IMG/VR virus record: IMGVR_UViG_3300009104_000002
Coordinates: 1 to 64,000 of that record
Source: a virus
Strand: one strand, 5' to 3'
DNA length: 64,000 bases
The notes beneath the pieces are model-generated. The model was not told the origin of the DNA and did not search any database. It saw only the letters and a list, made by a program, of their open reading frames with translations. The position numbers and the translations under genes are program-made. Below, piece after piece: positions 28,295 to 42,362 of this stretch. How positions within the stretch are numbered: the stretch's first letter is position 1; every line of letters starts with the position of its first letter.

Positions 28295-28453
28295 TCAGGA
28301 GAAGAAACCTCCACAATAGAGGACTGTCGCTAAGAGAAGGATTAAGGCGGTATTCTTCCACATGCTGATTTCGAGCTTTTGACCGTGCAAAAGCACGCCC
28401 GCGCAAAAGGTAATTGAAAGGTAGACAATGATGATGACTGCTGGAATAGACAC
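28295..28453 (-). CDS. 52-aa two-TM protein (GTG start)
   Basis: MSIPAVIIIVYLSITFCAGVLL...MWKNTALILLLATVLYCGGFFS. Confidence 0.55.
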   Translation of the reverse strand: MSIPAVIIIVYLSITFCAGVLLHGQKLEISMWKNTALILLLATVLYCGGFFS

Positions 28454-28455
28454 TT

Positions 28456-28767
28456 TTAAACGTCCTTTTCGACGGGGTTCATAAAGATAGTTTCTAACAT
28501 AAATTTGCGGTCTTTGATGTTCGCTGATATAAGAGTTTTAAACTCTTCTTTCTTTGAACCCTCAGACTCTTTAAAGCCTTTGAGCAATTCTCGGCCTTCT
28601 AAGCGCACTTCTTCCATGATGCGCATTGTTTCGGTTAAAGCTGTATTAAACAAGAGGTTGGTTGTGAAGGTTAAAGCTCTGATTTGAGCGAGTTCGAGAG
28701 GAGTCAGTTTGTCAGTTTGCATGGGCATGATTAAGAATTCCTTATATGGTAGGTAAGAAGGGCACAA
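28456..28767 (-). CDS. helical hypothetical protein (true start probably MPMQ)
   Basis: Coding-like composition. Confidence 0.65.
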   Translation of the reverse strand: MCPSYLPYKEFLIMPMQTDKLTPLELAQIRALTFTTNLLFNTALTETMRIMEEVRLEGRELLKGFKESEGSKKEEFKTLISANIKDRKFMLETIFMNPVEKDV

Positions 28768-28884
28768 TTGTAATTATGAACGTATATAATTAAATGCAGG
28801 TTAAAAGTTGACAATTTATCGCTTGATTATCTAGTTAGAATGGGCGACGTACACAGCGTGATTTCACAGTTTCCCCCTTGATTA

Positions 28885-29265
28885 TTAACAATCTCTGATA
28901 GTTGTATTTAATAGTACGTTTTCATTGGGTTCTGGTTCCTCCCACGATACTCCACTTTGAACCACTTCTTTCCCTTCTGGGCGATAAGCAAGTTCCCACC
29001 TGTATACTTCATGGTCTATATACTCTAGGGGGATAGTGAAGGTTGAACCTGGATTATTGAGGTCAGAACTCTGGGTAAAATCTCTATAAACGATATGTAA
29101 GGTTAAATCTGTATAATCATTTATATATTCATTATTGGCCTCGGAACTTTGTTTTGCGAGAACGAGGTATTTACCAATTACTTCGCCGTTTTTGGGATGG
29201 TCGGCGCGATTGGCGATACAAACTATCATATCACCGGGCTTCGCATTTTCAAGGTTCCAACTCAT
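28885..29265 (-). CDS. SH3/KOW-like early protein
   Basis: AKPGDMIVC...KYLVL...NPGSTF...WEL...VQSGVSWEE. Confidence 0.7.
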   Translation of the reverse strand: MSWNLENAKPGDMIVCIANRADHPKNGEVIGKYLVLAKQSSEANNEYINDYTDLTLHIVYRDFTQSSDLNNPGSTFTIPLEYIDHEVYRWELAYRPEGKEVVQSGVSWEEPEPNENVLLNTTIRDC

Positions 29266-29541
29266 TTATTTGTTCTTCCCTCGAACTCTTTCGGGTTCGA
29301 CGTAAGCGTAGTTTCTACCTGTATATTTGCCCACCGAAATATCCACCTTGATAACTTCTTTATCGTGGATTGTCAAACGCTCCAAAGCCCGCTTTGTAAC
29401 TTGGATATAGTTACAAGGCAAGCGGGTGTTGTTCAAGAGGACGGGCACCGAAAAGGTAGTTTTTTTCTGCCTTTTGAGCCAGTGATGAAACGACTCGGTG
29501 TCGTTGAAAGTCAAGGTTTTTCCTAGATTATCGTCTGACAT
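29266..29541 (-). CDS. hypothetical protein (start MSDDNL)
   Basis: GAGGGG RBS. Confidence 0.65.
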   Translation of the reverse strand: MSDDNLGKTLTFNDTESFHHWLKRQKKTTFSVPVLLNNTRLPCNYIQVTKRALERLTIHDKEVIKVDISVGKYTGRNYAYVEPERVRGKNK

Positions 29542-29542
29542 A

Positions 29543-29965
29543 TTATAGCCCCTCAACGTCTGCATCGATGTTGGCGGCCATAACGTCGGATAAAACTCCG
29601 TTTTTGTTCTTTGAGTCAATCCAATTGCACCATGCTTCTCGGCGAGCGGGGCCGTCAACGATTCCATCTTGCTCATATTGGGCTTTGATATGGGGTAATT
29701 CGACCTCCTCGAATTCCCGTATTGCTAACTGGGTTTTCTTCGCAAGCTCGGCGTCGAACGCATCTGTTACGGTTTCAAGCATATTATCGGCCAGTTCCTC
29801 GATGTCGCCTTCAAAGGCGGATAATGCGTCATAGGAAACATCGGATGCTTCGATGGTTTTATCCAAGGTATAAAGCTCGTTTTCGAGCGTTTCCTCAATG
29901 GCGGCGTGGATAGCGGATAATAGGGCGGCGTGAATATTGCTGATTTGGTCGGTTGAAAGGGTCAT
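29543..29965 (-). CDS. acidic hypothetical protein (start MTLSTD)
   Basis: AGGAG RBS; ARREAWCNWIDS motif. Confidence 0.7.
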   Translation of the reverse strand: MTLSTDQISNIHAALLSAIHAAIEETLENELYTLDKTIEASDVSYDALSAFEGDIEELADNMLETVTDAFDAELAKKTQLAIREFEEVELPHIKAQYEQDGIVDGPARREAWCNWIDSKNKNGVLSDVMAANIDADVEGL

Positions 29966-30017
29966 GTGATAGGCTCCTGAAAAGTAAGTTTTAAATTGGT
30001 TTATTGAAGGGTGTCGA

Positions 30018-30164
30018 TTATTGTTGAGTTTCGCGGCGGGTTTTGAGCCGGTTAAGGCATTTCTTAATTGGGTCGTCGGCGTCATCTTCGAGGGCATAGC
30101 CGACGAGAAGGGCGGCGCTGATTATCACCGGCAAAACTATAATAAGAAGAAGTAATGTTATCAT
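30018..30164 (-). CDS. 48-aa single-TM protein
   Basis: GAGG RBS; MITLLLLIIVLPVIISAALLVGYALEDD... Confidence 0.55.
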   Translation of the reverse strand: MITLLLLIIVLPVIISAALLVGYALEDDADDPIKKCLNRLKTRRETQQ

Positions 30165-30177
30165 TTGTGGCCTCGGA

Positions 30178-40565: not shown

Positions 40566-40589
40566 GGGTTTCTCCCTTTGTGTACCTAT

Positions 40590-40644
40590 ATTATACACGC
40601 TGGCGCGCTGCTTGTCTACTAAAAAGTTGTAAAGAAAATGTCAA
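40590..40644 (-). promoter_or_regulatory. triple-box early promoter cassette (-35 TAGACA)
   Basis: attata at 40590; boxes at 40614, 40629, 40640. Confidence 0.85.
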
Positions 40645-40880
40645 GAGATTATTTTCCAATAAAAATTGTTCGGCGTATCTTCTTCGGAGTCGATAGTTGA
40701 AACAAGTATATCGCTGACTCCACCCACACAGTGAGCGACGTCGGCATAGTAAGTAAACAAAACATAAGTTTCCAACCACTCATCATCCACAGATAAAATT
40801 AAGTGACGGTCTAACTCTTCTTCTTCCTCTGGTGGGAACCTGCAACAATGCGAGATTATTTGTCCTACTTCAAGTTTCAT
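40641..40880 (-). CDS. SH3/KOW-like early protein
   Basis: MKLEVGQIISH...RHLIL...LETYVLF...YWKII. Confidence 0.7.
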   Translation of the reverse strand: MKLEVGQIISHCCRFPPEEEEELDRHLILSVDDEWLETYVLFTYYADVAHCVGGVSDILVSTIDSEEDTPNNFYWKIIS

Positions 40881-41157
40881 TGTTTTTCTCGATAATATAC
40901 ATATCAACTGGCAATTCGTCTAGCGGAATCCATCGAGCAAAGCCGGGTTCGGGTAGGCGGTGAGCATAAATGGCGACACAAAAGGCGTTTTGGCCAACGA
41001 TTTTCAGCACTAGATACTTTCTCGCAACCCTATCCTCCGGGTAATAGCCATTCGCCCTATACAATGAGCCGATAATGTCTCCGACTCTGACCTCGTAGGG
41101 GTTGAATGTTATAAAATTCTCTGGCAATTTCAGTGGTTCAGTTTCAACGTACAGCAT
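40870..41157 (-). CDS. SH3/KOW-like early protein
   Basis: VRVGDIIGS...KYLVLKI; AGGAG RBS. Confidence 0.7.
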   Translation of the reverse strand: MLYVETEPLKLPENFITFNPYEVRVGDIIGSLYRANGYYPEDRVARKYLVLKIVGQNAFCVAIYAHRLPEPGFARWIPLDELPVDMYIIEKNNET

Positions 41158-41396
41158 TATATTCTCCTTAGATCGATGGTTCTTTTTAAGTAAGTGTCGC
41201 CCGCTACATAATCTGAATCGCCGGAAGCATAGCAAGCGCAGCGGATGTAAAGGTCGCCGCGTGGTGGGTGGTTGGACATAATCGGGTCATCGATAACGAA
41301 GAAGCGAGGGCTACATTCCTCGTCTACTTCACCACAGCAGGAACACCATTGGTCAATGATTACGTTATCACCTTTCTGAATTATCCGATTAAACAA
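41157..41396 (-). CDS. small Cys-containing SH3/KOW-like protein (TTG start)
   Basis: IQKGDNVII...CSCC...FFVID; GGAG RBS. Confidence 0.6.
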   Translation of the reverse strand: MFNRIIQKGDNVIIDQWCSCCGEVDEECSPRFFVIDDPIMSNHPPRGDLYIRCACYASGDSDYVAGDTYLKRTIDLRRI

Positions 41397-41423
41397 TGTG
41401 GGTTCTCCGCTTTCTGTACCTAC

Positions 41424-41478
41424 ATTATACACGCTGGCGCGGTGCTCGTCAAGAACTAAATTGTCAAGAGAATGTCAA
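41424..41478 (-). promoter_or_regulatory. triple-box early promoter cassette
   Basis: attata at 41424; boxes at 41448, 41463, 41474. Confidence 0.85.
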
Positions 41479-41639
41479 GAACTTTTTGTTAAGATTTCAG
41501 GGTGTTTATTGACAAATGCTATAAAATCTTCAAGAGCATCCTCGATTTCCTTCCTGTAGAAAGCAGTGACGGGGCGGTCGGCCCTCCTTCGCTCTTCCCG
41601 TAGAAGCTGGAGAATCAGTTGTTGTGTTTCATATCGCAT
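41475..41639 (-). CDS. 54-aa helical protein
   Basis: MRYETQQLILQLLREERRR...; manual translation. Confidence 0.55.
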   Translation of the reverse strand: MRYETQQLILQLLREERRRADRPVTAFYRKEIEDALEDFIAFVNKHPEILTKSS

Positions 41640-42012
41640 AGGTTACACCGTATGCCGTGAAGTAGTCAATGCAATATTCGTCAGTTATGTGGCCACGAAT
41701 GGCTGACTTGGTTCGTGTCTCGGGCTGCTTCCACGTTGCTGCACGGAAAATTGCGCCATCCTTTCGACGGATGAAGCCGTATACGGAAGCCGAGTTTCCA
41801 CCGAAATCATTTTGATTTTCGAGGATCAATTTATAATACACACGACCTTTTTGGACCGTCAGGACGGGCGGGTTGGATTCCGAAAGGAATGTTTTACCCA
41901 TGACAATCTGTGGGCTGGCGTGTTGACTATAATTTATATTGACCTTCGCCTGGATCTGCGGCAACAACTCATTGAGGGTGTGCTCGATTTCTAACTCTGA
42001 ATACTCTGACAT
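41629..42012 (-). CDS. widespread-type phage early protein (YYKL...SVYGFI...GAIFRAATWKQP)
   Basis: Motif pattern; GGAG RBS. Confidence 0.7.
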   Translation of the reverse strand: MSEYSELEIEHTLNELLPQIQAKVNINYSQHASPQIVMGKTFLSESNPPVLTVQKGRVYYKLILENQNDFGGNSASVYGFIRRKDGAIFRAATWKQPETRTKSAIRGHITDEYCIDYFTAYGVTYAI

Positions 42013-42089
42013 AAAAACTCCAAAAGATAAATTCTATGTTAATAATATAACACAAATGAAGCAGTTTGTCCAGTCTTTTTTTAAAAAAA

Positions 42090-42362
42090 TTATACTTTTT
42101 CCAAAAATAAGGGTATATCCTCTGGGTTCTTATAAAGCTCTATAGCTCGACGGTGCCAGAAGGAATATATTTTTATTGATATAACGGGAGTATAGAGTTT
42201 TAAGTTATCATAGGGATCCTCTATCACCTCCTGAGAAAAAATATATTCTCCGCCCTCTATCAATTTTTCTGATTCTATGACAATGCCATAACAATAGTCA
42301 ACTTTTTCACTAGCTGATTTCCACCTCACAATATCCCCAACATTGTAAGTTTGCGACTTCAC
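42090..42362 (-). CDS. SH3/KOW-like protein
   Basis: YNVGDIVRW...YGIVI. Confidence 0.65.
   Translation of the reverse strand: MKSQTYNVGDIVRWKSASEKVDYCYGIVIESEKLIEGGEYIFSQEVIEDPYDNLKLYTPVISIKIYSFWHRRAIELYKNPEDIPLFLEKV

Follow-up and report, generated by a model that had tools for sequence, protein, structure and literature searches.

How do T4-type phages beyond the coliphages, which to our knowledge have neither MotA nor AsiA, sort the promoters that they use before replication? The question is raised by the DNA described here, a stretch of 64,000 nucleotides (the window; positions 1 to 64,000 of virus record IMGVR_UViG_3300009104_000002) in which ten copies of a promoter cassette, each with two extra -35-like boxes, lie on the minus strand within 30.9-41.5 kb. 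The source record (190,479 bp; G000 below) is from a T4-type phage with a Gp23-family capsid gene (family match). Its nearest isolates by capsid protein, Flavobacterium phage immuto, Microcystis phage Mel-JY01 and Rhodothermus phage RM378 (~44-50% identity), are distant relatives of T4. What are the extra boxes for? Our analysis revealed that the tandem-box element is real, strongly non-random and conserved across a clade of uncultured phages of ~190-205 kb. This clade carries two clearly separate sigma70-type promoter classes, the boxed one being defined by a rigid, strongly selected tandem element.

The cassette reads cTTGACAt-N3-cTT(G/T)ACAa-N8-[-35]-N17-TATAAT. Its upstream part consists of two head-to-tail 8-bp repeats, box 1 (cTTGACAt) at -62 to -55 and box 2 (cTT(G/T)ACAa) at -51 to -44. 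Box starts follow one another in steps of 11 bp and then 15 bp in 10/10 copies, the extra boxes sit 15 and 26 bp upstream of the -35, and the -35/-10 spacer is 17 bp. Since the two boxes are 11 bp apart, both lie on one face of the helix. An earlier note, made from the letters of the window, had listed ten 55-bp copies with invariant geometry. All ten were recovered at its coordinates and on the minus strand, with both offsets exact in every copy; the length needed revision, as the repeat unit runs to ~80 bp and takes in the conserved start region and a Shine-Dalgarno site. The copies are as follows.

Cassette 1, 41424..41478, minus strand: box 1, box 2, -35 TTGACG, -10 TATAAT.
Cassette 2, 40590..40644, minus strand: box 2 TTTACA, -35 TAGACA.
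Cassette 3, 40269..40323, minus strand: -35 TAGACA.
Cassette 4, 39022..39076, minus strand: -35 TTGACC.
Cassette 5, 37312..37366, minus strand: upstream flank of a one-gene module that is missing from a relative.
Cassette 6, 36904..36958, minus strand: downstream flank of the one-gene module; drives conserved gene c3.
Cassette 7, 35715..35769, minus strand: drives c2 (two CCHC zinc knuckles).
Cassette 8, 34828..34882, minus strand: drives c1 (MoxR-type AAA ATPase).
Cassette 9, 33501..33555, minus strand: -35 TTTACT; drives c4 (DUF2201/VWA protein).
Cassette 10, 30881..30935, minus strand: perfect boxes, degenerate -35 TATACA.

A search with the 31-mer of the earlier note, allowing up to three mismatches, returned five minus-strand copies, compared with an expectation of 0 in shuffles of the window; the full set of ten was obtained by repeat finding and a looser scan. 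With the 18-mer box pair (up to two mismatches), every match in the 190-kb genome was on the minus strand, between 28,194 and 41,478. All ten cassettes have TTGACA as box 1, and box 2 is TTGACA in seven and TTTACA in three. In contrast, the cassette -35 is never a perfect TTGACA (TTGACG/C/T, TAGACA, TTTACT or TATACA), in line with the earlier observation that the upstream boxes are better kept than the -35 itself (perfect in 10/10 for box 1 and 0/10 for the -35). The ten core promoters score 10-11 of 12 with the 17-bp spacer. A -35, a 17-bp spacer, a TATAAT -10 and a short leader with a Shine-Dalgarno site show the cassettes to be sigma70-type promoters, as had been proposed. The proposal of an extended -10 held in part: a TG is present (cGTGTATAAT), but it stands one base too close for TGn, which occurs in 0/8 scored copies, and the canonical form (TGnTATAtT) is carried by the boxed promoters of relatives G002-G005. 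The cassettes had also been said to abut the preceding stop codon; in four copies the TGA of box 1 itself is the stop of the upstream frame (41475, 40641, 40320 and 35766, minus strand), and here the cassette overlaps the end of the preceding gene.

The region that the cassettes occupy is compositionally distinct. GC content is 0.46-0.485 at 30-38 kb compared with ~0.35-0.42 in the flanks, GC skew rises to ~0, and the ten cassettes divide ~11 kb into modules that hold between one and eight small genes. Of 42 reading frames in the early region and its flanks, most match no family in Pfam or PHROGs. The described partition of a GC-shifted region into gene modules stands, with ten modules of small, mostly orphan genes. 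We infer an 'immediate-early' timing for the boxed promoters.

The whole genome was then scanned with the core promoter only (-35 and -10). This analysis placed boxed promoters only at 30.9-41.5 kb and identified ~20 unboxed promoters scattered elsewhere, mostly on the same strand; the absence of the triplet from single-box promoters, noted earlier for the window, was thus found to be genome-wide. The unboxed class is characterized by an A/T-rich upstream stretch (AT content 0.82, compared with 0.72 in boxed promoters), a perfect cTTGACA and a canonical TGn, whereas the boxed class in this genome has no perfect -35 and a GTG at the place of TGn. Unboxed promoters were found just 5' of a tRNA-like 5' end, 5' of a tmRNA gene, and among replication genes. 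One example is given below.

Unboxed promoter, 27757..27785, minus strand: A-rich upstream stretch, perfect TTGACA, TGn and TATAAT; conserved in G001.

The split into boxed and unboxed promoters recurs in relatives G002 and G004. These comparisons show that the boxes define a promoter class of their own, apart from the UP-type promoters that the genome also has. The tmRNA gene (22470-22842, minus strand; Rfam 116 bits; tag ANNNNHFQAVALAA) is preceded by an unboxed promoter at 22934, and another unboxed promoter, at 94, adjoins five tandem copies of the 9-bp unit TTAGAGTGT at the record start (1-63). In two relatives, boxed promoters directly precede sequences resembling tRNA 5' ends (G001 L072:3235-3330; G003 L074:288-380), and the boxed class may therefore extend beyond protein genes.

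To place the element among other phages, the region and one cassette were compared with 50,697 phage records by megablast and blastn, and no matches were found. The triple-box motif is absent from immuto, Mel-JY01 and RM378, which contain background box pairs only. Among IMG/VR contigs, the exact 18-mer box pair was present in 61 stretches and a looser triple-box pattern in 101. Five complete relatives (G001-G005; 187-204 kb) carry 7-15 copies each, on one strand and within 10-15 kb; their identity to G000 is 27-83% in four conserved early-region proteins, with genome-wide means of 44-59%. The relatives keep the offsets of 15 and 26 bp from the -35, whereas spacers, -10 flavour and gene content differ. 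Across the 63 boxed promoters of G000 and these five relatives, ACA is present in both boxes in 63/63, a flanking C in 81% (box 1) and 95% (box 2), and T or A as the next base in 90% and 92%; variable parts are the inter-box spacer, the -35/-10 spacer and the -10 flavour. The final A is invariant in both boxes (63/63), compared with a sixth-place A in only 38% of real -35 hexamers. When relatives were scanned from the core promoter, nearly every strong early-region promoter had both boxes in the same register, and some had a third upstream box at 11-12 bp. Among 459 unique core-anchored promoters, exact upstream hexamers peaked at offsets 15 (260) and 26 (226), with a minor 14/25 class that keeps the 11-bp inter-box step and other offsets almost empty. 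The share of boxed promoters in this set is inflated, because the relatives' loci were mostly fetched via the motif, and the offsets are tested independently only by loci seeded with the 18-mer and by non-seed promoters, since the triple-box seed itself fixes the spacing to the -35.

A host regulon was also considered and rejected. The triple-box pattern gave 4 matches in 596 Gb of sequence (185,579 genomes of bacteria and archaea), about as many as chance would give, and it is thus a trait of a viral clade and not a general promoter form. No description of the tandem-box design was found in the literature by word and sequence searches.

The boxes also occur without promoters. Three further arrays of two or three boxes lie at 27,970-28,211, next to the only convincing intrinsic terminator of the region, and none has a usable -10.

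Terminator, 28239..28259, minus strand: sole convincing intrinsic terminator, at the end of the boxed region.
Box array, 28180..28211, minus strand: no usable -10, just after the terminator.
Box array, 28036..28067, minus strand: no usable -10; spacing 11 + 15 bp.
Box array, 27970..28000, minus strand: no usable -10; spacing 11 + 14 bp.

Some of the pairs or triplets lacking a -10 are inverted, and G001 shows the same arrangement. Taken together, these data show that the boxes are under purifying selection, paired at 11 bp, locked to the -35, and able to exist without a promoter; the pattern of conservation marks them as a site selected, in all likelihood, for protein binding.

What the boxes replace can be seen in a relative that lacks them. 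G007 (IMGVR_UViG_3300048881_000698; complete, 185 kb) contains no box pair, yet it is as close to G000 as G002-G005 are (62% capsid identity, 79 shared proteins), and it has early genes c1-c4 and a comparable row of promoters (3.9-20.7 kb, minus strand). Many of these promoters have an upstream A-tract (gaaaaataa), and in nine the -35/-10 spacer holds an invariant palindromic ATTTAAA, with A or T as the usual next base, an element that may be an operator. As the A-tracts stand at the matching position, the boxes occupy the site of a UP-type A-tract, and each lineage marks its promoters with its own element, which suggests that the readers of these marks, too, differ by lineage. Boxes are likewise missing from the c2 and c1 promoters of G006, but its contig ends inside the early region and this absence is only partly informative. 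The boxed genomes are not cleanly grouped together on a capsid tree, which indicates that the trait was gained, lost or exchanged more than once.

The earlier note had offered a sigma-region-4 array that captures polymerase or an operator for a phage regulator; we lean towards a separate factor. We tentatively favor a reading, at somewhat less than an even chance, in which the boxes recruit. The boxes replace the A/T-rich upstream stretch of ordinary promoters, and the pair would be the docking site of a putative sequence-specific protein, phage- or host-derived, two copies of which would bind in tandem and contact RNA polymerase. The roughly ten promoters would then form a separate regulon, switched or boosted independently of the ordinary ones. 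A positive role is favored because the pair sits at the UP-type A-tract site of the unboxed class and of G007, and because the -35 can decay while the boxes stay perfect, as at 30935 (TATACA). The box pair can serve as a defined 26-bp probe in the search for a new regulator, or for a polymerase contact of a new kind.

Several results weigh against a recruiting protein. Domain searches identified no Trans_reg_C, GerE, sigma70 region 4, AsiA or MotA domain in the phage, and no DNA-binding family was found in the 42 early-region and flanking frames (Pfam, PHROGs) or in 126 other small frames (Pfam). A presence/absence profile returned ten genes common to all boxed genomes and missing from G007. 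Eight candidates were inspected, six of those ten and two genes found in four/five boxed relatives, and all eight resemble enzymes, membrane or acidic proteins and not transcription factors. Finally, the boxes have the same sequence as the best -35 among the phage's strong promoters, down to the C at -36, as expected if sigma region 4 read them directly. The searches would miss a factor supplied by the host, or a phage protein that is small and evolves fast.

Genes of the early region were also considered as binders and set aside. The two zinc knuckles of c2 are of the CCHC type, which binds single strands. For c3, the predicted fold is helical with a small SH3-like barrel and without a significant PDB match, and the Atlas lead was weak. 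All four genes, c1-c4, are present in the box-less G007.

The identity of the boxes with an optimal -35 makes direct reading by RNA polymerase the main rival, although we consider it rather unlikely. Here the boxes would be extra landing sites for sigma region 4, or for another part of the enzyme, that raise the capture of host polymerase with no added factor. Besides the match to the strongest promoters and the failure of the searches above to find a phage transcription factor, the position of the boxes speaks for it, as they fill -44 to -62, the UP-like A-tract zone of the unboxed class and of G007. However, a holoenzyme has one sigma region 4, and the strict 11-bp pairing on one helical face is therefore left without an explanation. 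The final A, invariant in the boxes and kept in only a minority of real -35 hexamers, argues in the same direction, as do the box arrays that have no promoter and those that are inverted. At 17 bp past box 1 and box 2 (-38 to -33 and -27 to -22, in a C-rich region) nothing resembles a -10, a result that also rules out overlapping promoters. A polymerase docked on a box would, judging from footprint sizes, clash with one at the true promoter.

A recruiting protein was also weighed against a shut-off operator, a quite unlikely alternative in our estimate. A phage protein bound to the two strong boxes would spread cooperatively to the -35 and silence the takeover genes after a short burst, while ordinary promoters keep firing. 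This would account for the shared sequence of three boxes, the third of which overlaps the -35, and for triple units that hold the 11 + 14/15 spacing even without a -10; the spacer palindrome of G007, at the same promoters, is at a typical repressor position, and the boxed promoters drive mostly orphan small genes of a kind that is often toxic. In contrast, a repressor needs no fixed phase to the -35, the 15-bp step places the -35 on the helical face opposite to the pair, and the site lies where activators and UP elements act. Neither the Pfam and PHROGs searches of the frames nor the presence/absence profile revealed a candidate repressor.

A more specific proposal leaves the sign of the effect to the reader protein. 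The boxes could be the cis-element of an undescribed form of promoter marking, in which two optimal -35 copies, at -61 and -50, are read by a small protein of phage or host with a specificity like that of sigma region 4, which hands over or withholds polymerase for a dedicated takeover regulon. We regard this as possible but, on balance, doubtful; if true, the reader would do for a large T4-type clade of uncultured phages what MotA/AsiA, both absent from that clade, do for T4.

To determine whether gene order between cassettes is static, we compared early regions across relatives. Two features are needed here.

Conserved core, 32129..36877, minus strand: c3, c2, c1 and c4, each with its own boxed promoter where present in boxed genomes.
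One-gene module, 36964..37320, minus strand: between cassettes 5 and 6; orphan 118-aa frame.

The exception in the core is c3 of G005, which lies outside the boxed region; c3 is also the core gene without an assigned function. Gene order was found to differ between relatives. Gene c3 stands before c2 in G000 and after c4 in G003 and G004, and c5 belongs to a five-gene module in G000, stands alone in G001 and is accompanied by c7 in G004. Most other genes of the region are confined to one genome, protein clusters switch modules between genomes, and patches of very different DNA identity adjoin each other. The clearest case is the one-gene module, whose orphan reading frame is 106 aa long from a Shine-Dalgarno-led TTG start at 37284. 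In contig 3300025133_000055 (L033) the module is absent, and just one cassette lies between c3 and the gene that in G000 precedes cassette 37366. This gain or loss is bounded exactly by two cassettes, and together with the mobile gene order it bears out the earlier idea of module shuffling and its analogy to the promoter-early stem-loop (PeSL) cassettes of T4-type phages. The cassettes are near-identical within a genome and, as these comparisons show, act as homology for module gain, loss and exchange, as PeSLs do. They are a clear natural case of promoter cassettes that serve as joints along which gene modules are exchanged. Separately, the order c2-c1-c4 (32129-35703, minus strand) was constant in all examined relatives that have all three genes, G007 included, and looks like a conserved early three-gene unit.

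Could recombination alone explain the boxes? They might persist with no role in transcription, as recombination homology under concerted evolution or for another DNA transaction such as replication iterons. Near-identical cassettes within a genome with lineage-specific flavours are a sign of homogenization, the indel is bounded by cassettes, and a dense box cluster adjoins a conserved non-coding stretch at 27.76-28.2 kb. We nonetheless hold this explanation to be very improbable. Homogenization cannot keep the 8-bp units across lineages with 27-54% identity in the conserved early-region proteins while the remainder of the cassette drifts, and the boxes are tied to the promoter by their constant distance from the -35.

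Three further observations were made in the course of this work. A non-coding stretch at 27760-27975 (minus strand), between the promoter-less box arrays and the conserved unboxed promoter, is ~75-85% identical in G000, G001 and two other contigs, whereas their proteins are far more diverged. It holds GATTTGTCA repeats, a G6/C6 hairpin and a CCGGAAAGT motif; no Rfam match was found, and the alignment of four sequences showed almost no covariation. The stretch could be an RNA gene or an origin. In 28050-28180 (plus strand), a long hairpin (28095-28170) has a 19-bp stem and T-runs on both sides, and a plus-strand TTGTCA-N17-TATAAT, made by the reverse complement of the boxes, points into it. The hairpin is absent from G001 and, with its promoter, could encode a small antisense RNA. 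The phage also carries an unusual set of host-like protein-handling genes, namely GroEL, a Cpn10-like protein, two ClpP-like proteases, an FKBP isomerase and ribosomal protein S21, seen as Pfam matches in pooled scans that were not mapped to single genes (outside the window and at 49516-51084 within it).

We finally compared the boxed cassettes with known systems. Sites of the OmpR/PhoB type are hexamer direct repeats with an ACA core, ~11 bp from centre to centre, that lie upstream of the -35 or abut it, where a head-to-tail dimer contacts polymerase. The 11-bp direct-repeat period upstream of the -35 is found in every cassette as well. In contrast to those sites, the half-site here is the -35 consensus, no gene with a Trans_reg_C or winged-helix domain was found in the phage, and the triple-box pattern is at chance level in bacterial genomes. 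The phage activator CII of lambda recognizes TTGC-N6-TTGC around the -35 of PRE, likewise a short direct repeat that resembles part of a -35. The CII repeats straddle the -35 with a 10-bp period, whereas the pair described here lies wholly upstream with an 11-bp period, and no CII-like gene was seen in this phage.

The early promoters of T4 follow a UP / -35 / TGn / -10 design for the host polymerase (PMC2988021). Like them, the cassettes are near-consensus promoters with extra conserved information upstream of the -35, and the unboxed class fits the design. The boxed class differs in having sequence-specific direct repeats instead of an A/T-rich UP element at -40 to -60, and in this genome it lacks the canonical TGn and a perfect -35.

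The closest comparison is with PeSLs, which combine strong sigma70-type promoters with a stem-loop (PMC2839356, PMC4122927). Both are repeated strong sigma70-type promoters with a Shine-Dalgarno site, both stand between small orphan genes where a T4-type genome is hyperplastic, and both accompany module insertion, deletion and exchange between relatives, with the indel described above bounded by cassettes. The earlier note had called the cassettes different from PeSLs, and two features agree with this. No stem-loop terminator precedes the cassettes (19 terminator-like sites compared with 16.6 in shuffles; a strong hairpin just upstream was found only at cassette 9, the 33555 copy), and two -35-type boxes in fixed phase stand where PeSLs have their A/T-rich upstream part. 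The boxes are, moreover, kept across deeply diverged lineages, beyond what homology of the PeSL kind needs. With an added upstream element that we found described nowhere, the cassettes work like PeSLs for genome plasticity.

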